From positions 1-44,990 of IMG/VR virus record IMGVR_UViG_3300025571_000006: 44,990 bases of DNA, one strand, 5' to 3'. This stretch comes from a virus (taxonomy: Duplodnaviria > Caudoviricetes). Positions 3,341-43,967 of this stretch are shown here, one piece after another (position 1 is the stretch's first letter; the number at the start of each line of letters is the position of its first letter). A model generated the notes under the pieces. That model made no database searches, was not told where the DNA came from, and saw nothing but the letters and a program-made list of their open reading frames with translations. A program made the translations under genes and the position numbers.

Positions 3341-4447
3341 TCAAACCCTCATGGGCATGAGCACGATGAGCGCCTCGGCGCCATCGTGGCTCTTGATGAG
3401 GCAGGGAGAGCCGGCATCGGCGAGGGCGAGGCGCACCGTGTCGGAGGCGAGGACGCCGAGGATCTCGGAGAGGTAGCGGCCCTGGAAGCCGATGGTGAGG
3501 GGCTCGCCCTCGAAGTCGGCGACGACCTCTTCGCTCGCTTCGCCCGCGTCGGCATTGGTCACGGACAGGGTGAGGGTTCCTGGCGCGAAGTCGAGCCTCA
3601 CGCCCCGGCCGCGCTCACCGCAGAGCGTCGTCACGCGGTCGACGGCCGCCTTGAGAACTCCGCTGTCGAGGGTCGCAATCTTGTCGTTTCCCGTGGGGAT
3701 GACCCGCCGGTAGTCCGGGAAGGGGCCGTCGATGAGCTTGGAGGTGAGCGTGATGCCGGCGGCTGCGAAGCGCACCTTCGAGCCTGACACGGCAAAGTCC
3801 ATGTCGCCCTCTGCGTCGGCCGCAAGGCGGGCGAGCTCGCCAACCGTCTTGCGGGGCACAGTGACGGGTGGCATTCCGGCGGCGCCATCGGGCAGCGGCA
3901 CCGTGATGTGGGCGAGGCGGTGCCCGTCCGTCGCTGCCGCGTGAAGACAGCCTTCAGTGGCGTGCAGGTGCACGCCATTGAGGTAGTACCGCGTCTCCTC
4001 CGACGAGATCGCGAAGGTCGTGTGTGTGAGGATGCGCTGCACCGCCCTGGCCGGCAGGGCGAAACGGTGCGGCAGGTCTTCGTCGGGCAGGCCCGGCCAA
4101 TCCTCCTCGGGCAGGGACAGCAGGACGAAGCGCGAGCGGCCTGCCTTGACGAGAAGGCGGGCGCCACCCCCCTCGGCCGTCAGCTCGATCTGGCAGCCGT
4201 CAGGCAGCTTGCGGACGATGTCGTGGAAGGTGGCGGCGGGTACCGTGAGGGCGCCGGGCGCGTCAACGACGGCGGGGGCGCTGGCCTCGGCCCAGATGTC
4301 GAGGTCGGTGGCCTGGAGCCGCAGATGCCCGCCCCTGGCCTGCAGCAGCACGTTGCCGAGAATGGGGATGGTGGGGCGGCGCTCGACGATGCGGTTGAGG
4401 GCCGCGAGCGGCTTGAGCAGGGCGCCCCGATCGATGGTGATGTGCAT
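3341..4447 (-). CDS. dnaN: DNA polymerase III beta sliding clamp (368 aa)
   Basis: VERRPTIPILGNVLL, ATDLD, FAISSEETRYYLNG, ATDGHRLA, SKLIDGPFPDYRRVIP, C-terminal LMPMRV; GGAGG RBS before ATG 4447. Confidence 0.96.
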   Translation of the reverse strand: MHITIDRGALLKPLAALNRIVERRPTIPILGNVLLQARGGHLRLQATDLDIWAEASAPAVVDAPGALTVPAATFHDIVRKLPDGCQIELTAEGGGARLLVKAGRSRFVLLSLPEEDWPGLPDEDLPHRFALPARAVQRILTHTTFAISSEETRYYLNGVHLHATEGCLHAAATDGHRLAHITVPLPDGAAGMPPVTVPRKTVGELARLAADAEGDMDFAVSGSKVRFAAAGITLTSKLIDGPFPDYRRVIPTGNDKIATLDSGVLKAAVDRVTTLCGERGRGVRLDFAPGTLTLSVTNADAGEASEEVVADFEGEPLTIGFQGRYLSEILGVLASDTVRLALADAGSPCLIKSHDGAEALIVLMPMRV

Positions 4448-6309: not shown

Positions 6310-6540
6310 ATGGAGAGCCTTACGCTTGGGACTAGGCGCGCCGCTACGGACGACCGGCAGTGGTGTGCTCAACTTCGGTGTAGGAGTTGTCTCGCAGAGC
6401 AATTGGTGCCGGTGCCGGCGTCCGTAGTCCGGGACGGGATCTGGCGTGGCTCGGCCTTCGTCTGCGCGGCATGCGACGGGCGGGCGGCAGTTGTCGTGGG
6501 CTTCATGATCGACCGCCGGACAGGGATGCTGGGCGCCTAG
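6310..6540 (+). CDS. Small zinc-ribbon protein (76 aa), convergent with cI
   Basis: CRSC...CAAC pairs; upstream LexA box; 3' end overlaps the cI stop by 4 nt. Confidence 0.65.
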   Translation: MESLTLGTRRAATDDRQWCAQLRCRSCLAEQLVPVPASVVRDGIWRGSAFVCAACDGRAAVVVGFMIDRRTGMLGA

Positions 6541-7274
6541 AAAAGAGGCACCTCATTCTCGATGCGGCGGACGATCGCGAGGATTCTGACCTGCCGATGG
6601 TCTTCTTCGCTCGGATCGCGTGCCAGCACGCGGGGGACGACGATCGGCTTATGTTGTTGGTTATGCGAGCGAGGATGGAATTCCGTGCGGTCCTCGTAAA
6701 GCTCGATCTGCTTGACCGACCACTCGCGGTGGTGGCCGCCATCGAGCGTCTGCTCCACGACGACGACCATGCCATCGCGCAGCGGCAAGCGCCCCCGCAG
6801 ATCCTCAAAGTCAAGGCAGACGATGCGGTCACCGGGCAGGATCGGGCGGGGCTTGAGGGCATTCATGCTGTCGCCGCCTACGTCGAACGCGACGAGCCGA
6901 ACATCTGGAAAGTCCCGGTCGCGGGTGGTGACGATGGAGGCTGGCCTGTCTTCGTCGCTGAACCAGGGGGCCTCGCGGAAGGCGCCGGCCTCCACGGTGC
7001 CCGCGACGTTGACCTCGACGAGGGGTGCGTTTGACAGGGTGAGGGGACGCTCGCTGCTCTCTCCTGTGTGCTCGGCGAGCAGGAACTCGACTGTCGTATC
7101 CAGGGCCTTCGCCAGCTTGGAGAGGTTCTGGCCTCGAACGGATTTCTTTTTCCCGGTGAGGATGTCCACGATGAAAGAGCGCTCGAGCCCGCCAAGGCGG
7201 GCGGCCTCGAACGGATTGCGCCCAAGCTCGGCCAGCCGGTCGGCAACGCGGTTGCGGAAAGTCGTTTCACCCAT
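6537..7274 (-). CDS. cI: CI-like repressor, HTH + S24 autopeptidase
   Basis: N-terminal HTH (LSKLAKALDTTVEFLL), VEAG cleavage site, GDSM serine, SVKQ lysine; divergent from cro-like gene. Confidence 0.93.
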   Translation of the reverse strand: MGETTFRNRVADRLAELGRNPFEAARLGGLERSFIVDILTGKKKSVRGQNLSKLAKALDTTVEFLLAEHTGESSERPLTLSNAPLVEVNVAGTVEAGAFREAPWFSDEDRPASIVTTRDRDFPDVRLVAFDVGGDSMNALKPRPILPGDRIVCLDFEDLRGRLPLRDGMVVVVEQTLDGGHHREWSVKQIELYEDRTEFHPRSHNQQHKPIVVPRVLARDPSEEDHRQVRILAIVRRIENEVPLF

Positions 7275-7354
7275 GACGGATTTATCCGACTTTCCAGCGG
7301 TTGACGCGAGTAGGAAGTGTCCGCTTGACGAAGTAGGAAATATCCTACTATGCT
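7274..7354. promoter_or_regulatory. OR region: three operators and probable PR
   Basis: Perfect AGTAGGA-AATA-TCCTACT (7332-7349); degenerate copies 7309-7326 and 7274-7291; TTGACG 7325-7330 and TATGCT 7349-7354. Confidence 0.85.
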
Positions 7355-7364
7355 CGGCGTCGCC

Positions 7365-7676
7365 ATGGAACATGAGCTTCGCCATCACCTGATCTCCTGC
7401 GCTCGGGCGCTTGCTGCGCACCGCGGTATCGAGCCGACGACCGTTGCGCGCCTGGCGGCCGGGGATTGGCGCTTTCTCGATCGCATCGCGTCAGGAAGTT
7501 CGTTCACGGCGCGAAAGTACGATCAAGTCATGCGGTGGTTTTCTGATCAGTGGCCCGACGACCTGCCCTGGCCCTCAGATGTGCCGCGTCCTTCGGTTCC
7601 TCCCGGCCGCCCCCCGGCCAACTTCGCCGGAGCGGAGCGCGTCTCCGCTCCGGCCTCTTCCGGGGAGGGGGCGTGA
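7365..7676 (+). CDS. Cro-like DNA-binding protein
   Basis: Divergent from cI; TTVARLAAGDWRFLDRI...WFSDQWPDDLPWPSDVPRP. Confidence 0.75.
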   Translation: MEHELRHHLISCARALAAHRGIEPTTVARLAAGDWRFLDRIASGSSFTARKYDQVMRWFSDQWPDDLPWPSDVPRPSVPPGRPPANFAGAERVSAPASSGEGA

Positions 7677-7810
7677 TGCTCGCGCATGACCGCAACGGCG
7701 GCCTTGGCAAGGGCGTAGCGCCGGAGAGCGCTGCGCAGGCGTTCTCGCGCTGCCTCGATGCGCTGCTCGCGGTCGTCGCCAGTTTGCTGCATCTGCGTGG
7801 CCCTCCGTGA
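7676..7810 (+). CDS. Small hypothetical protein (44 aa)
   Basis: ATG overlaps cro stop; GGAGG RBS. Confidence 0.4.
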   Translation: MLAHDRNGGLGKGVAPESAAQAFSRCLDALLAVVASLLHLRGPP

Positions 7811-7875
7811 TCTGACCGCCTGACTGTCCCACTGCTGAGCCTTTTTCCCAACGAAAAAGCTGAGGAGCTTTTTTC

Positions 7876-8361
7876 GTGAGCGCTGCTGCTTTGCCCGACG
7901 GGCTCTTCACCCTCATCAAGAGCGCGATCCGCGAGCTCGTCGCGGCCTGTGCCGTGCCCGGCTCGACGGGGCCGGAGCGCGTGGAGCAGCTCACCGGCTA
8001 TTCGCGCGGCACCATCAGCCGCTGGCAGGGGGACGCCTACAGGGACCTGCCGCCGCTCGACGTGGTCGTCCTGCTCGAGTTCACGACGCAGCGGCCTGTC
8101 GTCTCGCGTTGGCTTGCTTCGCTTTCCAGCCATCAGCTCGTGCCGATGGCCGACAATGGTGACACGGGCTGCCTTGTGCATGACCTCGTGAGGACCAGCG
8201 GCACGGCCGCCCGCGTGACGGGCGAACTGAGCGCAGCGCTTGCCGACGGTGTTGTGACGCCGCGGGAGGCCAAGGCTGTGAAAGCCGCCATTGGCGAGCA
8301 CATGGAGACGCTTACCAGTGTGCGCCGCAAGCTCGCCGGCGTTGCCGCCAGGGGCGAATGA
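7876..8361 (+). CDS. Phage regulatory CII-family protein
   Basis: Position after cro; HTH-like RGTISRWQ and ALADGVVTPREA motif. Confidence 0.7.
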   Translation: MSAAALPDGLFTLIKSAIRELVAACAVPGSTGPERVEQLTGYSRGTISRWQGDAYRDLPPLDVVVLLEFTTQRPVVSRWLASLSSHQLVPMADNGDTGCLVHDLVRTSGTAARVTGELSAALADGVVTPREAKAVKAAIGEHMETLTSVRRKLAGVAARGE

Positions 8362-8362
8362 C

Positions 8363-8560
8363 ATGTGCCGGCGCTTCACTGCCCACTTCCTGCGCCACCC
8401 GCGCCGGTGGCGCATCGCACGGCGCATGGCCGCCGCCGGATGGCCGAGGTACGCCATCTGCCGCGCGCTCGGCATCCGGGCCGAGCGCCTCGCCGCCGCG
8501 ATGGCCCGGGCGGACCTGCGGGGCCCGGCTGAGGTGGCGCTTTTCCGGAGGGCTGCGTGA
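8363..8560 (+). CDS. Small basic HTH-like protein
   Basis: GWPRYAICRALGI; stop overlaps primase start. Confidence 0.55.
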   Translation: MCRRFTAHFLRHPRRWRIARRMAAAGWPRYAICRALGIRAERLAAAMARADLRGPAEVALFRRAA

Positions 8561-9765
8561 TGGCGCGCCTGTCCGAAGCCCAGCTCGACGAGATCCGCGC
8601 CCGCCACCCGGTGGCGGAGGTAGCCGGCCGGTGGGTGACCCTGCGCCGCTCGGGCAGCAAGCTCATCGGCCCGTGCCCGATCTGCTCCGACAATCGCCAG
8701 AGCCGGACGGCCGGCCGCTTTGAGGTGGATGGCGACCGCTGGGTGTGCGCCGTGTGTGCCGATGGCGGTGACGTGATCCGCCTCGTGCAGCGGGTGCAGG
8801 GGCTCGACTTCCGCGCTGCCGTGGCCTGTCTGGGCGGGGCCGAGGTGCTTGACCCCGAGGAGGAGCGGCGCCGGCAGGTGGAGCGGGAGCGCCGGCGCGC
8901 CCGGCGCGAGCGCACGGCCGCCATCATGCGCGAGCGGGAGCGGGAGCGCCTCTTTCGTCTGTGGCAGGGGGCCGAGCCGATCCGCGGCACGGCGGCCGAG
9001 GAATACCTGCGCCTCCGCGGGCTGAGGCCTCCGCCCGACGGGCGCCTGCGCGCGGCGCGCGAGATGCCCTACTACCACGGCGAGGAGCCGGATCCGCGAC
9101 GGCCGGGCAAGACGCGGCAGCGCGTGATCTATACGGGTCCGGCCATGCTCGCCGGCATCGTGGGCCCCGACTGGCGCTTTGCCGGCCTGCACATCACCTG
9201 GGTGGACCCGTCGCAGCCCAAGGGCAAGGCGCTCATCGTCGACCCGCAGACGGGAGAGACGCTGCCGGCGAAGAAGGTGCGCGGTTCCAAGCGGGGCGGG
9301 CACATCCACCTCGCCGGCCCCTTCGGCCCGCAGGCGCGACCGAGGCGCGTGATCCGCGGCGAGGGCATCGAGACGGTGCTGTCCGTCCGCCAGGCGCTCC
9401 TGGCGCAGGGGGCGGACCTGAGCGCCACCGTTTTCCAGAGCTCCATCGACCTCGGCAATCTCGGCGGCCAGCACGCCGGCACGGTGCCGCACCCCACGCT
9501 GACGCGTGCGGACAGGGCAGGGCGCGAGCGCTCCGTGCTCGTGCCCGGTCCGGTGCCAGACATGAGCCAGCCGGGCATCCCCCTGCAGGACAGCGTGACG
9601 GAGCTGGTGCAGCTCGGCGACGGCGATTCCGAGCGTTTCCTCACCGAGTGTGCGCTGCTGCGCGGCGCGGCCCGTTACGCGCGGCCGGGCCTCACCATCC
9701 GCAACGCCTGGGCGCCGGAGGGGGCGGACTTCAATGACCTGCTGCTCGAGGAGGTGGCGGGATGA
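8557..9765 (+). CDS. CHC2-type zinc finger / Toprim DNA primase-like protein
   Basis: GPCPIC...WVCAVC..GGDVI.LV; YLRLRGL; GLHITW; GEGIETVLS; GDGD; DFNDLL. Confidence 0.88.
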   Translation: MMARLSEAQLDEIRARHPVAEVAGRWVTLRRSGSKLIGPCPICSDNRQSRTAGRFEVDGDRWVCAVCADGGDVIRLVQRVQGLDFRAAVACLGGAEVLDPEEERRRQVERERRRARRERTAAIMRERERERLFRLWQGAEPIRGTAAEEYLRLRGLRPPPDGRLRAAREMPYYHGEEPDPRRPGKTRQRVIYTGPAMLAGIVGPDWRFAGLHITWVDPSQPKGKALIVDPQTGETLPAKKVRGSKRGGHIHLAGPFGPQARPRRVIRGEGIETVLSVRQALLAQGADLSATVFQSSIDLGNLGGQHAGTVPHPTLTRADRAGRERSVLVPGPVPDMSQPGIPLQDSVTELVQLGDGDSERFLTECALLRGAARYARPGLTIRNAWAPEGADFNDLLLEEVAG

Positions 9766-10739
9766 TCCCTGCCGACAGCAAAATGCTCTCAACGAGAAAT
9801 ATCTTCAGCCATTATTGTTTCAATGTCGGCAAGGGAGCTCTCTATCTTGCTGCGCTCCGTGCCAATAAGGTGCGACAATTGGGTGGCAAGGTTAAAAACA
9901 TCCTTTCCCCACTCAATGCTTATGCTCAGCAATTCGCGGGCGAGCTTCTCGCGAAGCTCGTAAACTGTCTCTCTATCGTCGCTGTCGACCGTGATGTATT
10001 CTATGGTTGCAAAGTGGATTCTGTTATCTGTGTGTTTGAACATGTTTGCGATTCTGAAAACGTGCTTGTTAAGTTTCGGTCCCCCTGTGAATTCTGCCCA
10101 AAGTTCATCCGCTATCGTGTATATGTCTTTGTTGAGGTTTCTCCACATTTCGATGTAGCGACACATGTCTTCTTGATATTTATGGGTGGATCCTATTTCG
10201 ATCTGACGGAGAAAATCGAAGTCAAAATTAATCCGTATTCGCGAAAGAGTGGCTCCATAGAATCTGAGTTTGGCGTCGAGATCCTGAAATTTGGCGAGAT
10301 CTCTCCAGCGCTCAGTAAGTCGGATGTGAAGATCTATTGCACGTTGCCGCCGAGATTCGTCGATCTGCCGCAAGATGCTGCGATTCTGGCGAACCAGCAG
10401 CGCAGCAGCCCATCCGGCAGCGGCCAGGGACAGAACCCCGGCGATCAGTGTCTGGTAGCGCTCGACCCAGAACTCCCAGCACCATTGAGCATGGCCAGCT
10501 CTCATGGCCGTTGCGACCAATGTGGACCCGCAAGCGACTGGTTCCAACGCCTTGTAAGCAATGAGGGCGGCAAAGCCGACCACTATCGAGACCCCAAACA
10601 TGACATGAGGCGTCGCGTTTTGCGCGTGAGGCGCGTGTGGCAGATCTCTCGGTTCCATCCTTCCAGTGTCCCCCAAGCCACCTTCAGTGGCGTGAGGATG
10701 GAAGGCGGGCGCGGACGTGTCGAGAGGCGGGCCGCATGA
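9762..10739 (+). other. Bridge ORF 1 (325 codons) antisense to membrane moron
   Basis: ATGA overlaps with primase stop (9762-9765) and MTase start (10736-10739); GAGGAGG upstream. Translation unproven. Confidence 0.45.
9789..10658 (-). CDS. AT-rich moron: membrane protein with two N-terminal TM segments and helical C-terminal domain
   Basis: Lower GC; hydrophobic FGVSIVVGFAALIAY and LIAGVLSLAAAGWAAALLV; start uncertain (10658 or 10601). Confidence 0.75.
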   Translation of the reverse strand: MEPRDLPHAPHAQNATPHVMFGVSIVVGFAALIAYKALEPVACGSTLVATAMRAGHAQWCWEFWVERYQTLIAGVLSLAAAGWAAALLVRQNRSILRQIDESRRQRAIDLHIRLTERWRDLAKFQDLDAKLRFYGATLSRIRINFDFDFLRQIEIGSTHKYQEDMCRYIEMWRNLNKDIYTIADELWAEFTGGPKLNKHVFRIANMFKHTDNRIHFATIEYITVDSDDRETVYELREKLARELLSISIEWGKDVFNLATQLSHLIGTERSKIESSLADIETIMAEDISR

Positions 10740-11320
10740 GACAGGGCGCCGACAGGCACGCGCTGGCCGAGCGCAAGGATGACCTTTACGAGACGCCGCC
10801 GGAGGCGACCCGGGCGCTGCTGCGTGTTCAGCCCCTGCCGCCGCGGATCTGGGAGCCGTGCGCAGGCCGCGGCGCCATTGCGCGCGAGCTGGCAGCGGCC
10901 GGACACGAGGTGGTGGCATTCGACCTCGTGCCGCACCACGGCGCCGACCCGGGAATCGTGACGCCCGTCGACTTCCTGCTGGAGCGCCAGGCGCCGGAGG
11001 GTTGCGACTGCATCGTGACGAACCCTCCCTACAAGCTGGCGGACGCCTTCATCCGGCACGGGATGACGCTGGTTCCGACCGTGATCGTGCTGCTGCGCCT
11101 CATGGCGATCGAGGGAGCGGGGCGCTCCGACCTCATCGACCGGCATCTCGTGCGCGTATGGGCGGGCATCGAGCGCCTGCCGGCCATGCACCGTGAAGGC
11201 TGGATGGGCAACCGCCTGAAGGGCGCGGGCGTGCCCTTCGCCTGGTTCGTTTTTTCCGCCAAGCCCCGGCCGGCTGGAAGCCCCATCGAGCTCATGCGCA
11301 TGTCGTGGAGGGAGCCGTGA
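10736..11320 (+). CDS. Small phage DNA amino-methyltransferase (probably N6-adenine)
   Basis: DLYETP, IWEPCAGRGAI (motif I), DFL, IVTNPPY (motif IV). Confidence 0.85.
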   Translation: MRQGADRHALAERKDDLYETPPEATRALLRVQPLPPRIWEPCAGRGAIARELAAAGHEVVAFDLVPHHGADPGIVTPVDFLLERQAPEGCDCIVTNPPYKLADAFIRHGMTLVPTVIVLLRLMAIEGAGRSDLIDRHLVRVWAGIERLPAMHREGWMGNRLKGAGVPFAWFVFSAKPRPAGSPIELMRMSWREP

Positions 11321-12420
11321 TCGCGCTCTCCATCAACAGCGATTGCCCAACGAGCAGCAAGATGCGTTTGGGGACTGCCAATTTGAGATCCATCCAAGCG
11401 GGTGCCACGACTGAAGCGGAATTCTCGGGATCAGGTGTCGGAGGGCGGAGCCCCCTCGATGCTCGGCATCTTTTCGAGAAGCTTCTGATTGTATTCTGGA
11501 CCGTCCTTTCCCGCATGGACGCGGCGGTGGCAGGTCGGGCAAAGCGCGATTACAAAACGAGGGTGATCCGGACCACCGTCGCTGACGCGGCGGATATGGT
11601 GGGGCTCGAGGTACCGTGTACCGTCGGGCCGCTCGAATGGGCCAGGTCGGCCGCAACCCTCACAACGTCCGTTCGCTCGCGCGAGGACGTAGGCGCGCAC
11701 GTGCGCGCTCCGTTCATATACGTTTTGTCGGCGACAGCCGGCAGGTGCCGACGGTTTGGCCGCCTCATACGCTCGACGACGCAGCTCTGGCAAGGAAAGA
11801 GCCGCAGCAGACTGATCCTCCTGCCCCCCTTGTTCGGTGTGAGAGTTGATAGCGGCAAGGCTTCGCAGCTCGAATACTATTGCATTCCGCATATTACCAT
11901 TTCGGTCAGGTGCTTCTTTGAAGTGATGCCCTTCGCAAACCCACTCCCCTTCAAAACGAAGACTGGCATCGCGTTGAGTGCGGAACAGCAAAAGGCTTTT
12001 TCCCTCGGCGACGTGATTGCTGATAGCGCGATTGCCACGCACAAACGTCATGTCGCCAACCTGCCCCTCGCCGAAATACTCAAAGATCCCATCAGACCGC
12101 AGACGATCGGCGTAACCATGTTGCTGCCCTTCGGTGCCTGTGATGATGAAGATGACCGGATGGCGGCGGGGGGTGATGATGCCTCCCCGCAGTTGTCCGC
12201 CAAAACGAGCATGGATATCGCGGCGCCGATTGTACGCCCGCCCAAATTCAAACTGCCAGCCCATCGTTGCTCCCTTGGCTGTTTCCACGCGTCGCCAAGA
12301 TTCACCGCGTCCCGCCCGGTTGAAAACAGGGAGCTTCGTTCTGAGGCCGTGGAGTGGGGTTTGCGGCATGTGACCTGCAGTGCGAACGCTCTTCGCCTCG
12401 GCGGAGGGCCGCATGACTGA
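11317..12420 (+). other. Bridge ORF 2 (367 codons) antisense to SRA-HNH moron
   Basis: GTGA overlap with MTase stop (11317-11320); stop in ATGACTGA over helicase start 12413; GGAGG upstream. Translation unproven. Confidence 0.45.
11431..12264 (-). CDS. SRA-like + HNH endonuclease (type IV, McrA-like, modification-dependent)
   Basis: GGII...HGYAD...DG.FEYFGEGQ.GDM...GNRAI..H...GK.L.LF, then CEGC...YLEPHH...GGPD...IALCPTCHRRVH; GGGAG RBS. Confidence 0.85.
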   Translation of the reverse strand: MGWQFEFGRAYNRRRDIHARFGGQLRGGIITPRRHPVIFIITGTEGQQHGYADRLRSDGIFEYFGEGQVGDMTFVRGNRAISNHVAEGKSLLLFRTQRDASLRFEGEWVCEGHHFKEAPDRNGNMRNAIVFELRSLAAINSHTEQGGQEDQSAAALSLPELRRRAYEAAKPSAPAGCRRQNVYERSAHVRAYVLARANGRCEGCGRPGPFERPDGTRYLEPHHIRRVSDGGPDHPRFVIALCPTCHRRVHAGKDGPEYNQKLLEKMPSIEGAPPSDT

Positions 12421-14176
12421 CGAAGCGTTGCGCACCATTGCCGAGATCGTGGAGAACGCCGAGCCGGTGGACATTGCGCCCACCGGCGATGGCGGCGGCC
12501 CTCGCACACCCGGCGGCGGGGATCGAGGCGGGGGCGGCGGCGAGCCGCCGGAGCGTGTGCCTGATCCGGTGGACTGGGAGCTGGTGCGTCGCTGTGCCGC
12601 CGAGCCGGAGACGGACATTGGCAATGCCCGGCGCTTTCTGCACCGCTACCGAAACGACGTTATCTCCGTGATGCGCATCGGCTTCCACGTTTACGACGGG
12701 CGGCGGTGGGCCGAGGACGTGGAGGGAGCGAGCATCCGCCCCCTGGCGCACAGGACGGTGGAGGAGATCCGCCTTGAGGCGACGCTGGTCGAGCCGACCG
12801 AGGAGGAGCAGGCGGCCATCGCAGCGGCCGAGGAGGTGATGCCGCGGTATACCAGGCTGAAGAAACTCGGCCGCCAGCGCACACCCGAGGAGGAACTGGA
12901 GCTGCTGCGCCTCGGCGAGATCGTGGGGCTCGGCGCCGAGGCGGCCAAGGCGATCTCGGAGCGGCGCGCCAGGCGCGTGCGCTATGCCAAGACCTCGGCC
13001 TCGTCCGGAAAGATCGACAACATGCTCAAGGAGGCGGCCGTCTACGTCGCGAAATCCGTCTCCGAACTCGACGCCGACCCTCTCGCCATCAATTGCCACA
13101 ACGGCACGTTGCGCCTCGTCCGGCAGGGCGAGGGCAAGCAGGCCATCTGGACCGTGCGGCTCGACCCGCACCGGCGGGAGGACCTCATCTCCAAGCTGAT
13201 CCCGGTGGCCTATGACGACGCGGCGGAGTGCCCGAACTTCCTGCGCTTCATCGAGACGGTGCTGCCGGACGACGAGGTGCGCGCCTTCATGCAGCGCTAC
13301 CTGGGCTATGCACTGACTGCCCTGACGGGCGAGCAGGTCTTCGTCTTCCTCTACGGGCAGGGGCGCAACGGCAAGTCGACCCTCGTGGACCTCATCTGCC
13401 GGCTGCTCGGCGACTATGCTGCATCCGTGCCCTTCGAGACGCTGGCGGGCGAGGACCGCCGCAAGGGGTCCGAGGCGACGCCCGAGCTTGCCCGTTTGCC
13501 GGGCACGCGGCTTGTGCGCGCGAGCGAGCCGGAGCAATCGATGCAATTTCGCGAGGCGATGGTGAAATCGCTCACCTCGGGCGAGCCCATCCTGGTGCGC
13601 CATCTGCACCGAGACTTCGTGGAGGTGTACCCCACCTTCAAGCTGGTCGTGTCAGGCAATCACAAGCCGACCATCAAGGGCACGGACGACGGCATCTGGC
13701 GGCGCGTGCTGCTGGTGCCATTCCTCGTGCAGATTCCCAAGGAGGACATCGACCGCGCGCTGCCGGACAAGCTGTGGGCTGAGCGGGCCGGTATCCTCAA
13801 CTGGCTCATTGCGGGCGCGCTCTCTTACCTGCAGGAGGGGCTGGGCATCCCGGAGGCCGTGCGGGCGGCCACGGACGAATACCGCGAGGAATCGGACCCG
13901 GTGAGCGCCTGGGTGCGCGAGGCCTGCATCGTCACCGGTGAGGACACCGACGTGATGACGCCGGGCGAGGCGCACGCCTCGTTCAAGGTGTTCTGCGAGC
14001 GGGCCGGCTTCAATGCCTGGGGACCGACGACATTCAACCGCAACCTGCCGCTCAAGGCCGCGGCATTCGGATTCCGCAAGGCGAAGTCGATGGGCATGAG
14101 CCTCTACCGCGGCCTGCGCATCAAGGACGAATACCGGCCGCCCTCGCACACCCATGGCGGGGACAGCGAGGGCTGA
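12413..14176 (+). CDS. P4-family / D5-like SF3 helicase (phage/plasmid primase P4 family C-terminal)
   Basis: TDIGNARRF, NCHNGT, Walker A GQGRNGKST, SGNHKP, DDGIWRR. Confidence 0.93.
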   Translation: MTDEALRTIAEIVENAEPVDIAPTGDGGGPRTPGGGDRGGGGGEPPERVPDPVDWELVRRCAAEPETDIGNARRFLHRYRNDVISVMRIGFHVYDGRRWAEDVEGASIRPLAHRTVEEIRLEATLVEPTEEEQAAIAAAEEVMPRYTRLKKLGRQRTPEEELELLRLGEIVGLGAEAAKAISERRARRVRYAKTSASSGKIDNMLKEAAVYVAKSVSELDADPLAINCHNGTLRLVRQGEGKQAIWTVRLDPHRREDLISKLIPVAYDDAAECPNFLRFIETVLPDDEVRAFMQRYLGYALTALTGEQVFVFLYGQGRNGKSTLVDLICRLLGDYAASVPFETLAGEDRRKGSEATPELARLPGTRLVRASEPEQSMQFREAMVKSLTSGEPILVRHLHRDFVEVYPTFKLVVSGNHKPTIKGTDDGIWRRVLLVPFLVQIPKEDIDRALPDKLWAERAGILNWLIAGALSYLQEGLGIPEAVRAATDEYREESDPVSAWVREACIVTGEDTDVMTPGEAHASFKVFCERAGFNAWGPTTFNRNLPLKAAAFGFRKAKSMGMSLYRGLRIKDEYRPPSHTHGGDSEG

Positions 14177-14514: not shown

Positions 14515-15393
14515 ATGACGGCAAAGCGGGTGATGGATATCGAGGCTGTGCTGCGGTGGGCCTACCGGGACGAGTTGCCGAAGGCCGCGCCGGCGCGGGC
14601 CGGGCTTGCGCGAGGGATGAGTGCCGCATGGAGCAGCGTCGAGTCCTTCGTCGAACTGCTCACGGTGATTGACGACAACAGCTTCGGCGTCGTGCCTGAT
14701 CTCCTCTCCTCCAACGGCCCGCACGCGGACGCCATCGCCATCTTCGAGCGGGTGCGAGCGCTCGATGACCTCGAAATCGAGTTGCCCGACGACTGGAACC
14801 CCATGGTGGACCTCGGCGACCTCGGCGACCTCGGCCGGGAGGCGATTGCCCGCGCGATCGACGCCGCGACCATCGTCGACGAGCAAAATCGCCGCCGTCT
14901 CCGGCGCACGCCGCGCCGGCTCGTGGAGAAGCACGCCATCCTCGGCGGGTGCCCGGACTGGGAAATGGAGGCGCCGGTCGCTGAGGTGGTGCGCCGCGGG
15001 AAGACCGGACAGCCCGCCTGGTTCGTGAAGGAGACGATCTGGGAGGAAGCCTTCGGCGGGCAGCGCGTTGCGCGCGTCGTCGAGGTGGACGGCTTCAGCT
15101 ACACGCGCCGCCGCCCTCGCCCGGGCGCGTACCAGAAAACCCACCTTGTTCCCGATCCGGTGCCAGGGCTCGTCGAGCGCGCAGAGTATGAGGTGTGGCG
15201 GGCGGCGCTCGACCTGCTGACTGAGGAGCTTTCTGGCCAGCTCGAATCGATCGATGTGCGTCCTTCGCCTCGCCCGCACCGCCCGTGGGAGGTGGGGCGC
15301 CCCGGCCAGCGTGTCCTTGATAGTCTTCTGAAACCATTGCCGGACAAGGAAGTGAGGGCCAAACGCCCGCGGCGAGCGAAGCAGGGGGCTTGA
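14515..15393 (+). CDS. Phage protein at the Q position (possible late regulator)
   Basis: AAGGAG RBS; MDIEAVLRWAYRDELPK; last gene before the late block. Function inferred from position only. Confidence 0.6.
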   Translation: MTAKRVMDIEAVLRWAYRDELPKAAPARAGLARGMSAAWSSVESFVELLTVIDDNSFGVVPDLLSSNGPHADAIAIFERVRALDDLEIELPDDWNPMVDLGDLGDLGREAIARAIDAATIVDEQNRRRLRRTPRRLVEKHAILGGCPDWEMEAPVAEVVRRGKTGQPAWFVKETIWEEAFGGQRVARVVEVDGFSYTRRRPRPGAYQKTHLVPDPVPGLVERAEYEVWRAALDLLTEELSGQLESIDVRPSPRPHRPWEVGRPGQRVLDSLLKPLPDKEVRAKRPRRAKQGA

Positions 15394-27026: not shown

Positions 27027-29003
27027 ATGACGAGGGCCCGCACGCTAGAGGCTGCCGCCATCATCTCGGCGTCGGACCGCACGGGTGCCGCCTTTGCGTC
27101 CGTCTCCCGCAAGCTCGCCGGGCTCGATCGCGCGGCGCGTGGTGTCGGCCGCACGATGTTGCTGCACGATAGGGCGGCGCGGGCGATGACGGCCGGCATG
27201 GTGGCTCTCGGTCGCGTCCTAGGGCCGGCGGCGCTCGCGTACGGCACGACCCGGGCGGTGCGTAATTTTGCCGAGCTCGAGCGCAGGATGACCCGCGTCG
27301 GCATCACGGCCGATGCCTCGCGCGAGGAGATGGAGCAGTTCACGGGCGAGGCGCGCCGCATGGCCGGCGACCTCGCCATGCCGCTCGACCAGATCGTGGC
27401 GGGGGCTGACGCCCTTGCCGCGCAGGGGCGCTCGCTGCAGGAAATACGGGCCCTCCTGCCGTCCGTCGCCAAGACGGCGCAGGCCGCCGGCGCAGAGGTG
27501 GATGACATTGCCCGTTCTGCGGACGCGGTGGGCACGCACCTCAAGATCGGTGCGGATGAGATGCAGAAGGCCTTCGACATCATGGCCGAGGGCGGCAAGG
27601 CCGGGCAATTCGAGCTGAAGGACATGGCCCGCTACCTGCCGTCGCTGGCGCCGGCGGCAAAGGCCATCGGAATGGAGGGCGCCAAGGGCCTCGCCGACCT
27701 CGTCGCGATGCTGCAGATCCTGCGCAAGGGCGCCGGATCGGCGGAGGAAGCGGCAACCTCCATGAACAACATCCTTCAGAAGATGTCGTCGGAGGAGACG
27801 CGCAAGCGTTTCGCCAAGATGGGCGTCGACCTCGAGGCTGCCCTCAAGAAGGGGCGCAAGGAGGGGCGAAACCTCATCGAGGTCTTCGAGGATGCAACCT
27901 GGAAGGCGATCCGGGGCGACCTGTCGCAGCTGCCAAAGCTCATCGGCGACATGGAGTTCGCCCGCGGCATGCGGGCGCTCCTGTCGATGCGTGGCGAGTG
28001 GCAGAGGCTCGCCGGCGCCATCGGCGAGGCGAGCGGCACTGTCGAGCGGGACCTCAACCGCGTGCTGGGCGACTCCCAGGCGAAGTTCGACCAGTTGTCG
28101 AACGCATGGGACCGGTTCGTCACGTCCGTGGGCGCTGGGGCCGTCAACATGGGCGTCGGCAGTCTGCTGCAGGGGCTCGCCGAGAGCATCGACCAGCTCA
28201 GTAACGGACTGCAGAAGGTCGAGGACATCCTTGAGAAGCGCCGTCGCATCGCGGCCATTGACGCGGAAGCTTCTGGCGAGGCGGAGGGAACGCGGGAGTG
28301 GATCGAGCAAGAAAAGCGAAAGGGCGAAGCCTTCGACGCCTGGGTTCTGGGCCTGACGGGCATCGACTTTCGTGGGGGCATCGCCGGTCTCGTCGATGCC
28401 TACGAGCAGTCACTCAGTGTCGATGCAGCGTTGCGGGAGGGGCGGCGCGACGCTGAGGCGCGAGCCGACAAGGCGCGGGAGGAGATGCTCGACGAGCTGA
28501 TCTATGGGCGCTCGTCGCTGGGCGACAAACGCCTCGACGCATTCGACAGGGCGACGCGAGAGGAGGAGAACCGGCGGATCTACGACTTCCAGCGCGAGCT
28601 GGAGCGATTGCAGTCGCAATGGATGGCGCAGCGCGCCATGAGCGTTGGCGTGTGGCAGCCCTTTGGCGCATCGGTGCAGGGCAGGGGTTGGAAGGGTGCG
28701 AAAGCGATTGGCGCCGCTCCTGGGATGGAAGGTGTGTCAGGAGCGAGCCCCCTGGATGGGCCCGGATTTGGCTCGTTCGGGGCCAAGATCGGCGCGCCTG
28801 TGTTCGGGGACGCGGGGCCTATCAAGGCCGAGCTCGAGGGGCACGCGCGTGTTGTCAACCAGATCGAACTCACCCTCAACACGGATCTCTTCCGCGCGCA
28901 GGTGCAGCAAGTGATCCGAGAAGAGGTGGGTAATATTCGTGTCTCGCCGGCTAGCCCGGTCGGGCCGGGCTCGACCGGGCTGTCGTCGCCGGATGTGGGA
29001 TGA
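27027..29003 (+). CDS. Tail tape measure protein
   Basis: ISASDRT N-terminus, GKAGQFELKDMARYLP, Ala-rich helical sequence, position. Confidence 0.92.
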   Translation: MTRARTLEAAAIISASDRTGAAFASVSRKLAGLDRAARGVGRTMLLHDRAARAMTAGMVALGRVLGPAALAYGTTRAVRNFAELERRMTRVGITADASREEMEQFTGEARRMAGDLAMPLDQIVAGADALAAQGRSLQEIRALLPSVAKTAQAAGAEVDDIARSADAVGTHLKIGADEMQKAFDIMAEGGKAGQFELKDMARYLPSLAPAAKAIGMEGAKGLADLVAMLQILRKGAGSAEEAATSMNNILQKMSSEETRKRFAKMGVDLEAALKKGRKEGRNLIEVFEDATWKAIRGDLSQLPKLIGDMEFARGMRALLSMRGEWQRLAGAIGEASGTVERDLNRVLGDSQAKFDQLSNAWDRFVTSVGAGAVNMGVGSLLQGLAESIDQLSNGLQKVEDILEKRRRIAAIDAEASGEAEGTREWIEQEKRKGEAFDAWVLGLTGIDFRGGIAGLVDAYEQSLSVDAALREGRRDAEARADKAREEMLDELIYGRSSLGDKRLDAFDRATREEENRRIYDFQRELERLQSQWMAQRAMSVGVWQPFGASVQGRGWKGAKAIGAAPGMEGVSGASPLDGPGFGSFGAKIGAPVFGDAGPIKAELEGHARVVNQIELTLNTDLFRAQVQQVIREEVGNIRVSPASPVGPGSTGLSSPDVG

Positions 29004-29528
29004 TTATGAGGAGGGGGTGAGGGGGAGACTGCAGGTCTTGGTGAATTCCGCGAAGGCCTTGGCCGCCCCCTTGGCGGGAAAGGTGAGAACTGTTCCTTCT
29101 ACCCCGACGCCGATGCGCTGTTTGGCCGCCGCAATCTGACTGAACAGTTTGAAGACGTTTTCCTCTTGTTCAGCGGTCGTCGCGAATATCAGGCGTCCTC
29201 CCAACTCGGTTATTGCGAGTGGAATGGTAATCTTCTCATTCTTATCTACGCGAAATACTACGTCGACTTGATCCTTGTACGAGGCAGAGTGGTCATAGCG
29301 CATGGGTGACGCCAGCATTAGGGTTGTACTGCCTGGCCTTCCTTCCCAACACTTGGCGCCCAATGCGAAAGGATTCAGCCCGCCCCCCTTCTGCAGCTGC
29401 GTAACCACCGCAGTCTTGGTGTCGTCGAGTGGATCCTCGTCCGTTTTAATGCCCCACACCTCGGCGTGCGCAGCGGAAGCTGAGATGACGACTGCGCCGA
29501 GGCACGCGATTGTAGAAATAATCTTCAT
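29004..29528 (-). CDS. Moron: exported protein with Sec signal peptide
   Basis: MKIISTIACLGAVVISASAAHA-EVW; lower GC; antisense inside the tail operon. Confidence 0.8.
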   Translation of the reverse strand: MKIISTIACLGAVVISASAAHAEVWGIKTDEDPLDDTKTAVVTQLQKGGGLNPFALGAKCWEGRPGSTTLMLASPMRYDHSASYKDQVDVVFRVDKNEKITIPLAITELGGRLIFATTAEQEENVFKLFSQIAAAKQRIGVGVEGTVLTFPAKGAAKAFAEFTKTCSLPLTPSS

Positions 29529-29603
29529 GGCCGCCCCCATTGAGCGGCAGCGAGATTAGAGCATGAAACCTCGAGCGCAAACGGCCTGCTGCGGAGACGG
29601 GCG

Positions 29604-36749: not shown

Positions 36750-37195
36750 TGCCCTGGGCCGCTCCCGGACAAGTCAGTACCGATCCGATCGCCGGCGGTA
36801 TCGAGATAAGCGACGCGGATTACACCGTCGCTCTGGCCGGCATGGGCAATGGCAAGGTTGTCAGTGTGGAGGGGGGGGCATTCGCTCTCGTCGATCCGCC
36901 GGAGCCGGAGCCGGACCCAGAGCCGTCGACGGTCGATCGCTTTCGCTGGGCGATCCAGTGGCACATTGACACCACAGCGCAGACGCGAAACTACGACAGC
37001 GGCGTGACCTGCGCCTCCTATGTCAATTCGACAAACGCTACGTGGGCGGCTGAAGCGATGGCATTCACCGCATGGCGCGATGCCGTCTGGGCCTACGCCT
37101 ACGCAGAGCTGGAGAAGGTCGTCAACGAAGAGCGGCCGCAGCCGACCGTCGAGGACTTCCTCGCAGAGCTGCCCCCATTCACGTGGCCGTCGTAG
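36746..37195 (+). CDS. Tail fiber assembly-like protein
   Basis: ID..AQ.R.YDS..TCASY..ST...WAAEA.AF.AWRD.VW...LP...WP. Confidence 0.75.
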   Translation: MMPWAAPGQVSTDPIAGGIEISDADYTVALAGMGNGKVVSVEGGAFALVDPPEPEPDPEPSTVDRFRWAIQWHIDTTAQTRNYDSGVTCASYVNSTNATWAAEAMAFTAWRDAVWAYAYAELEKVVNEERPQPTVEDFLAELPPFTWPS

Positions 37196-37979
37196 GTGCC
37201 GCTACCTTCCGCGCGAGGCAGCCGTATTCGAGCCCCTCGTCCGGTCCCCGCAACGTCTCGGCCGTGTGGATCGGCTCGAAGCCCAAGCCGCGGATCAGTG
37301 CGTCGATGACAGCCGGGCGCTTCGTGATGTTCTGATGCCCCTCGTCGGGCTTGGGATAATGCCAGATATCGGTCCAGAACAACAGGTAGCAGCCGGGGGC
37401 CGCATAGGTCGCCATGGTGTGCAGGACCGCCAGCGGATCCTCGGCGTGATCGATGGCGTTGCGGCAGATGATGGCGCCGTCCACCGCGCCAACGAGGTCC
37501 GGAATGATCGGCTCGGCCGGCGCGCTGTAAGTTGTGATTTCGGGCACGAACAGTGTTCGCCCGATCATCTCTATCTGGATGCGGCGATACTGATCAATCA
37601 ACGGGTCAATGATGACCCGGTCCTTGATCCAGTAGCACGGCGATAGGTAGCCGAAGGGGCCGGAGCCGATTTCTAGACACTTCCGGTTCCGGACGTGATC
37701 GACGAACTGCCGGAATGCTTCTTCGTCGCCGCGAAACCACTCGTCGTTGGCGCCCTGCCAAAGGCCGCCCTGCGCCACGACCTCATCATATGTCTTGATA
37801 ATCCGCGGAAAGGCCTCTTCGATCGTCTTCCTCGCGCTGTCGATCTCGTAGGCCTGGGCCACCGAGTGATCGAAGCCGGAGCCCTTCCGGTCGGCCAAGA
37901 TCGGTGGGGTTATTGCATGGATGGCGCGCCTCGTCCGGTAGGCAATCGACTTCTTCGCGCGGCGTAGGAGCGACGTCAT
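37179..37979 (-). CDS. Moron: class I SAM-dependent methyltransferase
   Basis: CLEIGSGPFG, IIDPL, D.IICRNAIDH..DP, PG.YL; GAGGA RBS. Confidence 0.85.
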   Translation of the reverse strand: MTSLLRRAKKSIAYRTRRAIHAITPPILADRKGSGFDHSVAQAYEIDSARKTIEEAFPRIIKTYDEVVAQGGLWQGANDEWFRGDEEAFRQFVDHVRNRKCLEIGSGPFGYLSPCYWIKDRVIIDPLIDQYRRIQIEMIGRTLFVPEITTYSAPAEPIIPDLVGAVDGAIICRNAIDHAEDPLAVLHTMATYAAPGCYLLFWTDIWHYPKPDEGHQNITKRPAVIDALIRGLGFEPIHTAETLRGPDEGLEYGCLARKVAAPTTAT

Positions 37980-38039
37980 GGCGGTTCCTCGTCTCCGGGA
38001 TTGCCGACCCTCTAACACATTTCCGCCGCACTTCACCAT

Positions 38040-42017: not shown

Positions 42018-43967
42018 CTACGATTTGGCAAAATCAATTATATGATCGCAGAGAGTGTCTAGAGTTGGCAATTTAACTTTTTTATCGAATAGATACTCTA
42101 GTGCTGCGGCAATATAGAGCGCATTCTTGGTAAAACGTCCGGAGCCACGGAATCGGTTCGCAGCCGCATTCTTCGCGTTGCTCCAGTGCTCTGCGGCATC
42201 ATTCTGAATGCTGCTACCGATATCGTTGGGCCATGCCGTGTACCACTCGCCGCGGCAAACTTGGCTTGGGAAGGGCTCGTCGCTATTGCATCCGACCAAT
42301 TCAAACAAGGCTTTATTATCTCTCTCGTGTTCGCGCCGGATTCGAGCGGTGTCGTCTGCGTTCTTGCCCTCTTTATCTCCATCGCAATCGAAAATTACAA
42401 ACGTCGGAATTTCCATTTTCTTCGCGATAATTATGGGCTTAAGAAGCTCGCTTTTTCCATTCACAGGAACAATGTGCACTCCGCCCTTCCGCATGTCTAT
42501 CGAGCGCTCAGTCAATGTCATCCAGGCATGGATGTAGGCGGCGTCCTCTGGGCCCTCAACCAGTACCAGCTTGGGGCAGAAGAACATTTCGCTGAGGTGA
42601 GGTTGCATAACTTGGTGCAGTCGAGCCAGTATAGTACTCTCATTTGGTCTATCGTCTCCAGTAACACGTTTATATTCGTCTGACAGATGTGTAATTGAAC
42701 AGCTCCGGACGACAGAATGTCTTTCTGATTTATCCTTTCTTACAAGTCGAACTTGATTGAATCGCTGACCATTAACAAAGTACGGACTGTGCGTTGAAGC
42801 AATGACTTGAGAGTTCTGGTTGCTTAGCGTTTGTAGAACTTCCGCCAAATGCCTTGCCTGCGGAGGATGCTGGTAGAGCTCGGGCTCTTCAATTCCGAGA
42901 ATAAGTCTAGGGTTGGCTGTATCATCGGAAACAGCAAGTCCGTGAAGGAGGGCGATGATATAGGACCGTTGTAGCCCGTGTCCGAATCTGGCGATAGAGC
43001 CTTCAAACTCGCCGTCGCCAGCAATGAGACGAGCCATTGGCTCATCAATGCGGATCGAAGACTTTGGATCTTGGTACCAGCTCAGCTTAGCCTTGGCGTC
43101 GGGATGCGACCATTCCGCCAAACGCTTTTGCAAATCGGCTGAAATATCGTCTAGAGCAGCTTGTTCGGAATCTAGCATTTCTTGATATCTTGATTCAATT
43201 TCATTGCGCATTTCAAGAAGTTTATCGGTAAAATTTACTTTCGACATAATAGTTCTATCTAGCAATCGGCGAAGCGCTGTGTTCCTTTCCGCGGCCTGTT
43301 CTGCTGCGGCATCTTTTACGGCCGGAACATAAACCCACTGAACGTACTTGCGCAGCTTGTTTTGGCCTTGCGCGAAACCATAAAACTCATCTTCACTAGG
43401 TATTATAGTACATTTGTCTGGGTTGTCGTTTTCAAATGATCGCAACGCAGCAAAAGCGGCGGCTTTAGTGTTGGCTGGCGGAAGATCGTTATAATTTTCG
43501 CGAAGTTTTTTGTACTCAGTCAATGCCTCTTGTGCCTTCCCCTTTTCGTTATAAAGGGCGAAAAAGTTGGCAAACGCGGCCATTCCAGTCCGATTGCCAT
43601 ATTGAATAACTTTTGCTCGTCCTGTAGAGTTGTCGAATTCGCCCCTTGCGGTTATTATCAACTTATCATTTCGGAAATAATCGGCAAAATCAACTTTTGC
43701 TTCTTCGGATAATTCGGTAAATGTTACTGTAATTTCTATCGGATCTGATGTGTTACCGGCGTGAAAGTCTTCTTTTTCAAGGGTGATAAGATTTGTAGAG
43801 GAGTTTTCTGTTTCGCGGAAAAACACATTGAGGGCACAAAGAACGGTCGATTTCCCGGCGCCGTTTGCGCCTATTAAACATGTATAATTATCAAAGCTGA
43901 TTATTTCGTCTTTAAATGCACGAAAATTCTTTATGTGAACTGAATCGATCCGCATTTGTTGCTCCAA
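42018..43967 (-). CDS. OLD-family ATP-dependent endonuclease (ABC ATPase + Toprim)
   Basis: GANGAGKST, GHGLQR signature, IEEPELYQHP, STHSP, VLVEGPED, FDCD; AT-rich. Confidence 0.93.
   Translation of the reverse strand: MEQQMRIDSVHIKNFRAFKDEIISFDNYTCLIGANGAGKSTVLCALNVFFRETENSSTNLITLEKEDFHAGNTSDPIEITVTFTELSEEAKVDFADYFRNDKLIITARGEFDNSTGRAKVIQYGNRTGMAAFANFFALYNEKGKAQEALTEYKKLRENYNDLPPANTKAAAFAALRSFENDNPDKCTIIPSEDEFYGFAQGQNKLRKYVQWVYVPAVKDAAAEQAAERNTALRRLLDRTIMSKVNFTDKLLEMRNEIESRYQEMLDSEQAALDDISADLQKRLAEWSHPDAKAKLSWYQDPKSSIRIDEPMARLIAGDGEFEGSIARFGHGLQRSYIIALLHGLAVSDDTANPRLILGIEEPELYQHPPQARHLAEVLQTLSNQNSQVIASTHSPYFVNGQRFNQVRLVRKDKSERHSVVRSCSITHLSDEYKRVTGDDRPNESTILARLHQVMQPHLSEMFFCPKLVLVEGPEDAAYIHAWMTLTERSIDMRKGGVHIVPVNGKSELLKPIIIAKKMEIPTFVIFDCDGDKEGKNADDTARIRREHERDNKALFELVGCNSDEPFPSQVCRGEWYTAWPNDIGSSIQNDAAEHWSNAKNAAANRFRGSGRFTKNALYIAAALEYLFDKKVKLPTLDTLCDHIIDFAKS

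Follow-up and report, generated by a model that had tools for sequence, protein, structure and literature searches.

The 44,990-nt window analyzed here is the entire, approximately 45-kb virus record IMGVR_UViG_3300025571_000006, which by its gene content belongs to a temperate, myovirus-like phage. Two backward genes of its rightward early operon, referred to below as cargo 1 and cargo 2, are each spanned on the operon strand by a long open reading frame (ORF), referred to as a bridge, which is coupled to the flanking operon genes. The data showed that this arrangement exists, that it is under strong selection and that it recurs with cargo of different families; it would work like an ambigrammatic reverse ORF within a noncontiguous operon.

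Two backward genes of the early operon lie beneath coupled open frames

The genes concerned alternate in strand, so that opposite-strand genes are interspersed among the co-oriented genes of the operon:

8557..9765, plus strand: primase (CHC2 zinc finger, DUF7146, Toprim); phrog_510, E 7e-62; an ATGA is shared by its stop and the start of bridge 1
9762..10739, plus strand: bridge 1, open over 325 codons, with an ATGA coupling at each end, in the register of cargo 1
9789..10601, minus strand: cargo 1, 270 aa with a hydrophobic N-terminus, likely a two-helix membrane protein; family with a C-x-EFWxNRYQ motif
10736..11320, plus strand: DNA methyltransferase (MTase, NPPY motif); phrog_799, E 4e-45
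11317..12420, plus strand: bridge 2, open over 367 codons, coupled by GTGA to the stop of the MTase, in the register of cargo 2
11431..12264, minus strand: cargo 2, a 277-aa HNH nuclease; PF01844; phrog_15103, E 2e-85
12413..14176, plus strand: D5-like helicase/primase, downstream of both bridges; PF08706, PF19263; phrog_1156, E 4e-133

Bridge 1 (9762-10739, 325 aa) starts with ATG, opens inside the ATGA of the primase stop (9762-9765) and closes inside the ATGA of the MTase start (10736-10739). Bridge 2 (11317-12420, 367 aa) starts with GTG, opens inside the GTGA that ends the MTase gene and closes after the first 8 nt of the helicase gene (ATGACTGA, 12413-12420); it is already stored as a predicted protein in a database. 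Shine–Dalgarno-like text precedes all four starts (GAGGAGG, GAGAGG, GGAGGGAG and GGAGG). The minus-strand genes (10601-9789 and 12264-11431) are codon-in-register with bridges 1 and 2, with the third position of the cargo codon being the first position of the bridge codon, while the remaining two plus-strand frames over each cargo hold 13–16 stops apiece. The codons TTA, CTA and TCA, which place in-register stops in a bridge, are absent from cargo 1 (0 among 27 Leu and 15 Ser codons) and from cargo 2 (0 among 16 Leu and 13 Ser codons). A preliminary description of this DNA, made from the sequence alone, had reported both frames, their ATGA and GTGA junctions, their register, their ribosome binding sites and the lack of the three codons in the backward genes, which it called morons, and all of these were confirmed. 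It also called the first of them AT-rich; cargo 1 has 50% GC, and the term is therefore true only relative to the surrounding core genes, which have roughly 67–70% GC.

Three codons are removed from open cargo genes by selection

A codon-aligned antisense frame could also be left open by chance as a result of GC-rich codon usage, as a shadow ORF. Inside the window this explanation has some appeal, because 8 of the 25 core genes equally lack TTA, CTA and TCA, and the probability of finding no such codon (P0) at GC-rich core-gene rates is an unremarkable 0.32 for cargo 1 and 0.44 for cargo 2. One example of this chance background is a minus-strand ORF of 754 codons (7528-9792), which is in register with the GC-rich primase and extends through the upstream genes. 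However, the GC content at third codon positions (GC3) is only 0.57 and 0.60 in the two cargo genes. Their own third-position A frequencies predict 9.5 and 4.2 such codons (P0 of 1e-5 for cargo 1 and 0.009 for cargo 2), and the rates of stop-bearing family members give P0 values of 0.0036 and 0.0056. An open antisense frame alone is thus weak evidence in a GC-rich window, and it is the comparison within families that settles the question.

Copies of both cargo families were collected with search patterns that contained no Leu or Ser. Among the viral cargo 2 loci, 28 of 32 have zero TTA, CTA or TCA codons; one of the loci (L007) is the window sequence. The viral copies and those from 58 genome-contig loci, of which 20 were partial and uncounted, gave 53 distinct full-length copies, 35 with none of these codons and 18 with 1–10. 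Pooled, the open copies have 596 Leu and 421 Ser codons, none of them of these types, as compared to 55 of 319 Leu and 32 of 209 Ser codons in the stop-bearing copies, although the frequency of third-position A elsewhere is similar (0.157 versus 0.180). Two copies with internal stops (L051 and L074) were cut at the stop in the pooled counts (full counts 10 and 3) and kept outside the pair tests and coupling controls described below, and two on long branches (L070 and L072) were kept outside the pair tests. The expected number of such codons in the open cargo 2 copies is 167, while none was observed, and the GC3 of these copies goes down to 0.39.

The relatives of cargo 1 gave the same picture. 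At E<=1e-3 an exhaustive search returned 39 representatives, whose matches fall mostly in the N-terminal part, and the 26 that are nearly complete in length went into an alignment; a word-seeded homolog search yielded 0 of 2119 candidates. All 22 viral cargo 1 loci are free of the three codons, although each has 19–38 Leu and 8–22 Ser codons and GC3 ranges from 0.48 to 0.79. No two of them are more than 35% identical over 150 aa. Their called neighbors lie mostly on the opposite strand, and several of these encode a primase, a helicase or an MTase. The 31 metagenome loci include 9 duplicates; among the 22 distinct ones, 13 contain 1–17 such codons and 9 contain none, four of the latter being short or cut. 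The viral set would be expected to hold 110 such codons at the rates of the 13 stop-bearing copies and 23 at the harshest GC-rich rate, while 0 were seen. In one pair of loci with 96% DNA identity (L160, 3291-4067, and L161, 3833-4609), a single CTA breaks the bridge frame in one copy where the other has CGA, possibly a recent loss or a polymorphism.

Two points count against taking these differences at face value: the control rates derive from copies selected for stops, which inflates the expectation, and the copies are related, so that pooled probabilities overstate their independence. Neither can close the gaps between the observed and the expected numbers. Stop-bearing copies of the same families and of similar composition put 11–17% of their Leu and Ser codons into TTA, CTA and TCA; a comparison with homologs of each moron had been proposed in the preliminary description. 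Moreover, cI repressor genes, whose GC3 (0.69–0.73) is higher than that of the cargo, all contain such codons (0 of 6 open; 2–7 codons each). Together with the own-gene probabilities and with the coupling at both ends, which is well above that in control frames, the family counts reject a chance shadow ORF, to which hardly any probability can be left.

Open copies occupy many different operon slots. The cargo 2 tree requires 8 changes between the open and the stop-bearing state, of which at least 6 are forced by supported branches. The neighbors of open cargo 2 copies are on the opposite strand, and at least eight different labeled genes lie downstream, which include DnaB, D5 helicase, primase-polymerase and head-tail adaptor, and further another HNH gene, a replication initiator, an MTase and phrog_4212. 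The layout is also carried by an isolated phage of a non-pathogenic host, Rhizobium phage RHph_TM3_3_3 (MN988468.1), in which the HNH gene (EVB37_077) is open, the bridge starts about 35 nt past the annotated upstream stop, behind a GGAGG, and ends in an ATGA on the next gene. Three of the 6 hits in a plasmid collection were looked at; such codons number 6 in one copy and 4 in another, and the third copy is open and coupled at its ends. Most of the 14 non-viral stop-bearing cargo 2 copies are without the operon layout, as judged by rough gene calls and PHROG labels.

The bridges are coupled to the flanking genes

The ends of the open frames were compared at 57 open loci. The first in-frame stop past the cargo lies in ATGA at 33 of them, in GTGA at 11, in TTGA at 4, in TRATG at 3 and in another context at 6. 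This stop opens a downstream ORF of at least 45 codons at 40 of the 57 loci, as compared to 7 and 19 in the other two frames and to 0 of 16 non-open HNH copies. The higher control value, 19 of 57, belongs to the frame in which the downstream gene itself is read, where natural coupling probably raises the count. Upstream, a stop–start overlap is found within 60 nt of the cargo end at 33 of the 57 open loci; the corresponding counts are 0 and 4 for the other two frames, and none of the 16 non-open copies has one. Some bridges close 3–45 nt away from the next start. These data bear out, across many phages, slots and cargo families, the earlier claim that the frames are kept open by selection.

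Selection acts on the open frame and not on the bridge protein

The bridges might instead be true overlapping genes with functional proteins, comparable to the gene 10/olg1 pair of phage Fc02, where the early-operon gene and its antisense partner are reported both to be able to give exclusion (PMC9936078). The good starts of the bridges and their lengths of 325 and 367 codons would agree with this. The protein-level tests, which cover the bridge 2 family, while bridge 1 was included in family scans only, gave a different answer. The fourfold-degenerate sites reached 0.948 of saturation in 552 open–open pairs versus 0.930 in 57 stop–stop pairs, which shows that the first positions of bridge codons are unconstrained. 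In seven close pairs the double-synonym sites differed in 10 of 44 cases and the single-synonym sites in 151 of 636, and hence there is no double-synonym excess. An AlphaFold model of bridge 2, based on 35 aligned bridges, had a predicted local distance difference test (pLDDT) value of 42 and a predicted template modeling (pTM) score of 0.18, while an ordinary phage gene with 21 alignment rows gave a pLDDT of 77. Homologs of bridge 2 were found only in its own cluster among 5.8 billion proteins, and neither bridge matched a Pfam, PHROG or PADLOC family. The same layout, in addition, occurs over unrelated cargo.

A functional bridge protein was rejected on these grounds, and overlapping genes are a very improbable explanation of the bridges. 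The saturation, the missing double-synonym excess and the absent fold together mean that selection acts on the open frame and not on the bridge protein; it removes stops and ignores the bridge amino acids. The protein-independent selection proposed in the preliminary description is thereby borne out, while its suggestion that bridges could seed overlapping genes found no support, since the bridge proteins show no constraint.

Other backward genes in early operons and late slots

A close relative of the phage (L098), with a helicase 90% identical to that of the window, has a primase with the identical ...gtggcgggATGA end, which runs directly into a different gene; therefore the start of bridge 1 is the native junction of the operon. 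The same relative carries a ParE-like toxin–antitoxin pair placed backward before the helicase, beneath a TGATG-to-ATGA bridge. At 28 helicase loci, 25 backward genes flanked by forward genes on both sides were found. Besides the six cI repressors mentioned above, four were set aside, which were a cI neighbor (2 codons), two leftward-operon genes (0) and one further gene (L115; 1 codon). Within the rightward early operon all 15 backward genes are open, among them HicAB-like and ParE-like pairs whose two genes share a single bridge. A survey of related prophages for different cargo under open coupled frames had been suggested in the preliminary description.

Three further backward genes of the window are unbridged, and their in-register stops agree with the preliminary description:

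29004..29540, minus strand: late-operon backward gene between the tape measure and DNA-circularisation genes; four TTA/CTA/TCA codons; all three plus-strand frames contain stops
37179..38039, minus strand: methyltransferase-like backward gene of the late region; four such codons; weak PF13489 match
42018..43967, minus strand: OLD/GajA-like ATPase-Toprim nuclease past the lysis genes; 20 such codons; PADLOC Old, E 8e-58; 46% GC

The last of these genes lies past the lysis genes and does not clearly belong to an operon. Searches with single proteins returned 6 loci for the MTase, 6 for the helicase and 4 for the DNA-circularisation protein; with so few loci, the late-operon survey consists of one independent relative slot and one locus at which no backward gene was called. 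The contrast between bridged early and unbridged late genes, drawn in the preliminary description, thus holds in this phage and in one close relative slot. It is not a general rule, because cargo 2 copies ahead of head-tail adaptor genes, which are late-type slots in other elements, are bridged, and the idea that only early operons are bridged was rejected.

Four phage-located HNH copies that are unbridged (L031-L034) carry, about 90–110 nt upstream of the HNH start, an AT-rich palindrome, ATGTTAT-N-ATAACA, with a TATAAT-like hexamer, before a head-tail adaptor gene. A second backward gene stands alongside in all four. This TATAAT-like palindrome is present in 4 of 4 unbridged copies, which form one clade, as against none of the 6 palindromes at comparable slots of bridged copies. 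The palindrome may be a promoter or an operator, and it looks as if a new promoter may have removed the need for a bridge.

What the bridges may do

An open, doubly coupled and sequence-indifferent frame suggests that the function likely lies in translation itself. Rho is reported to be blocked in E. coli by a trailing ribosome, and premature stops to cause polarity (PMC13323073). We consider it rather likely that the bridges act against polarity in combination with a ribosome hand-off, that is, that a bridge carries ribosomes from the upstream to the downstream gene and so spares the early transcript from Rho. The sequences show that the cargo sits antisense at a native stop–start junction, where the ATG of the next gene has become the ATG of the bridge. 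They also show that the codon-aligned frame alone is open, for which the cargo protein pays nothing and the gene gives up just TTA, CTA and TCA, and that the first stop lies on or beside the downstream start. According to the model, at induction ribosomes would re-initiate on the bridge and trail RNA polymerase over about 1 kb of slightly pyrimidine-rich foreign RNA, and those leaving the bridges would re-initiate on the MTase and helicase genes. In the lysogen, the cargo would be expressed from its own strand, and, in the manner of noncontiguous operons, it would in addition be damped by read-through at induction. In favor of this model, the operon strand has a skew of +0.033 over cargo versus −0.017 over operon genes (more C), and a pyrimidine fraction of 0.52 versus 0.48.

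A purely translational hand-off, in which the downstream genes need termination–reinitiation and the bridge delivers ribosomes with no part for Rho, is unlikely, although the exact NTGA junctions (48 of 57, with TRATG at 3 more) and the tight ATGA coupling of these operons speak for it. The downstream genes have their own Shine–Dalgarno-like text, which together with the promoter-like palindromes of the unbridged HNH copies would rather favor anti-polarity. The tape measure gene (29000-29020, plus strand) also ends in an ATGA, yet the late cargo that follows is unbridged, this ATGA opening a frame of only 6 codons out of register with the backward gene. The bridges that end 3–45 nt from the next start suit an RNA cover better than strict coupling.

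Ribosome traffic could alternatively serve RNA stability or the silencing of cargo, either as a shield of the early message from RNase E or from pairing with cargo mRNA (RNase III), or by letting the rightward polymerase win collisions and so shut the cargo off at induction. The noncontiguous-operon layout, in which antisense transcription is reported to switch off a prophage defence gene (PMC11087260), is in line with this explanation, and so is the narnavirus reverse ORF, which is described as required and for which a ribosome cover has been proposed (PMC8316113). On the other side, the noncontiguous operons of S. aureus phages are, in the accounts available, described without a bridge. We regard stability or silencing as an improbable sole explanation, which may nevertheless act alongside anti-polarity.

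Several observations weigh against anti-polarity and against a uniform need for bridges. The 60-nt upstream test is failed by 24 of the 57 open loci; roughly half of them show longer spacers or cargo of two genes, and no explanation is at hand for the others. Bridge 2 of the window is among the misses (114 nt), as are L021 and L054, where one bridge covers two cargo genes, and some misses are without any candidate. Of the 15 early-operon genes in the survey, many are short with a high GC content, one repeats an HNH locus, and all come from rough gene calling. Unbridged backward genes do occur in phage operons: two lie in the window's late region, with the same late slot unbridged in L185 and L186, and others are EVB37_075 of RHph_TM3_3_3 (one CTA), L115, and the cargo 1 relative L164, which has 11 such codons and a portal gene nearby. 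A late antiterminator to explain the unbridged late genes was not identified by a Foldseek search with the phrog_9306 gene described below. The shift in composition is small and is missing over bridge 1 (skew −0.01). Finally, 48 of 57 junctions are exactly ATGA, GTGA or TTGA, which is more than a cover against Rho needs; such exact 4-nt overlaps fit pure coupling or the simple retention of an old junction.

On balance, there is a fair case that temperate phages of transcription–translation-coupled bacteria share a design rule. Cargo of many families would be recoded so that both strands can be read, and a translated but protein-meaningless bridge ORF would replace an antiterminator. Backward defence cargo in the lytic operon, likely on in the lysogen, would be overridden at induction, and the recoded cassette could move between slots merely by re-phasing its two ends.

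The phage and its operons

Further features of the early control region are the following:

6537..7250, minus strand: cI-type repressor (helix–turn–helix and peptidase S24), divergent from the rightward early operon; weak PF00717 and PF01381 matches on the longer ORF 6537-7421
7325..7354, plus strand: sigma-70-like promoter candidate of the rightward early operon, TTGACG-18-TATGCT, 9/12, a consensus match only
7876..8361, plus strand: CII-like regulator; phrog_101, E 1.5e-16

The Pfam scan covered 34 and the PHROG scan 14 window proteins. They gave a gene order of an integrase-like gene, leftward early genes, cI, and the rightward early operon (CII-like regulator, primase, MTase and D5-like helicase), followed by terminase, portal, capsid, sheath, tape measure and lysin genes. 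The host is likely alphaproteobacterial, because relatives of the cargo 2 gene are mostly found in alphaproteobacterial genomes. The leftward early region encodes a full DNA polymerase III beta clamp with three Pfam domains (3341-4447, minus strand). Of two further minus-strand ORFs, one at 1670-2062 has an N-terminus that we take to resemble dihydrofolate reductase, and one at 44113-44766, beginning MCNLY, presumably resembles SOS-response-associated peptidases.

The sigma-70 consensus scan found 2 sites versus 0.7 in shuffles, which is near chance, and neither cargo start has a site of this type upstream. On the plus strand, four terminator-like sites were counted, including those at 9977 and 11226, the chance expectation being 4.3. 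No antiterminator was recognized in the Pfam and PHROG scans of 34 and 14 window proteins, which leaves its presence possible. A gene of phrog_9306 (14515-15393, plus strand) is conserved between helicase and terminase in most related phages and could by its position be a candidate late regulator. Its model had a pLDDT of 77 with 21 alignment rows, and a Foldseek search of PDB and BFVD for likeness to a Q-like late regulator remained without a match at E<=0.001; the Atlas yielded only unnamed clusters.

The cargo proteins

Cargo 2 is a predicted modification-dependent restriction enzyme, an HNH protein related to McrA. It matches EcoKMcrA (6ghc, E 1.7e-18), ScoMcrA (5zmm, E 3.6e-10) and the PADLOC model mREase_IV (E 1.2e-18), and the Pfam, structure-sequence and PADLOC matches agree on a C-terminal HNH domain of McrA type. 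This domain is what cargo 2 shares with the McrA-type nucleases, while its N-terminal domain (residues 11-109), a candidate modified-base reader, matches the central region of ScoMcrA (264-353) weakly, with a domain E of 0.86. The matched ScoMcrA region is, we assume, the SRA domain. A phage DNA methyltransferase gene is often no more than one or two genes away from the McrA-like HNH cargo (L014, L016, L018-L020, L026, L065 and the window), which raises the issue of self-targeting at induction. A GTTAA motif about 20 nt ahead of the downstream start, in the spacer before the ATGA, was seen at six loci (L015, L016, L018, L027, L028 and L038); it could presumably be a piece of a cargo promoter or a CtrA-type half site.

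The cargo 1 family (window 9789-10601, L132-L153 and L156-L184) has a conserved, hydrophobic, membrane-like N-terminus with C-x-EFWxNRYQ and highly variable C-termini. Its Atlas neighbors share no common Pfam family; those with a Pfam match, at 0.82–0.84, include retron Ec48 effector and putAbiC clusters, which serve as leads only. We treat the family as a candidate defence family, the defence role being a guess. The lack of TTA, CTA and TCA together with coupled ends can serve as a marker for operon-embedded cargo of this kind, while gene callers can choose the bridge over the real gene.

Comparison with known systems

Phage morons are lower-GC accessory genes between conserved phage genes, and an ATGA stop–start overlap is a sign of translational coupling. 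The cargo described here shares both the lower GC and the stop–start overlaps and differs by the recoding of the opposite strand; we know of no classical moron that is recoded to keep the opposite strand readable. Antisense overlapping genes are also found in P. aeruginosa, where the olg1 and olg2 proteins are reportedly active or under purifying selection. The olg1/gene 10 pair of phage Fc02 resembles the bridges in that a long ORF runs antisense to a gene, with one partner in the early lytic operon and the other expressed in the lysogen. Both Fc02 proteins are described as active, in contrast to an unconstrained bridge protein, and the Fc02 text, as far as it was available, does not use the term "coupling" (PMC9936078).

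Closer in layout are the noncontiguous operons of S. aureus, the men operon and ith-1/tha-1 of prophage 80alpha (PMC11034616, PMC11087260), in the latter of which antisense transcription is reported to turn the defence gene off (PMC11087260). They share with the operon studied here a backward gene inside a temperate-phage operon and probably mutually exclusive expression. According to the parts available of the noncontiguous-operon atlas, transcription must there traverse untranslated antisense regions, which is explained by runaway transcription in Gram-positives (PMC11034616). In the present phage the cargo is instead recoded beneath a doubly coupled frame, in a layout known from sequence. 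The bridges thus offer a testable answer to the problem, posed by noncontiguous operons (PMC11034616), of how a long untranslated antisense gene is crossed under polymerase–ribosome coupling, and they suggest a route for adding genes to phage operons without polarity. Among the titles and abstract openings surveyed, no description of coupled bridge frames over backward phage cargo was found, a provisional result, as most subscription papers and supplements lay outside the survey.

Ambigrammatic narnaviruses are likewise close in design. Their reverse frame is aligned with the forward codons, and TTA, CTA and TCA are avoided there too. In Culex narnavirus 1 this long reverse ORF is kept open by selection and is reported to be required, apparently without a functional protein, and translation itself has been proposed to matter (PMC8316113, PMC8155312). 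The phage bridges are likewise stop-free by selection and, in the bridge 2 family, free of protein constraint. The narnaviruses, as described, are eukaryotic RNA viruses in which whole segments are covered and there is no operon. The window, on the other hand, carries the genes of a double-stranded DNA temperate phage (integrase-like, cI, terminase, portal and sheath) and, by Pfam, no RNA-virus segment for an RNA-dependent RNA polymerase, and the recoded cargo belongs to many families and is coupled to the flanking genes. If this interpretation is true, the bridges would extend to bacteria a kind of selection that has so far been proposed for narnaviruses, one that acts on translation instead of on protein.

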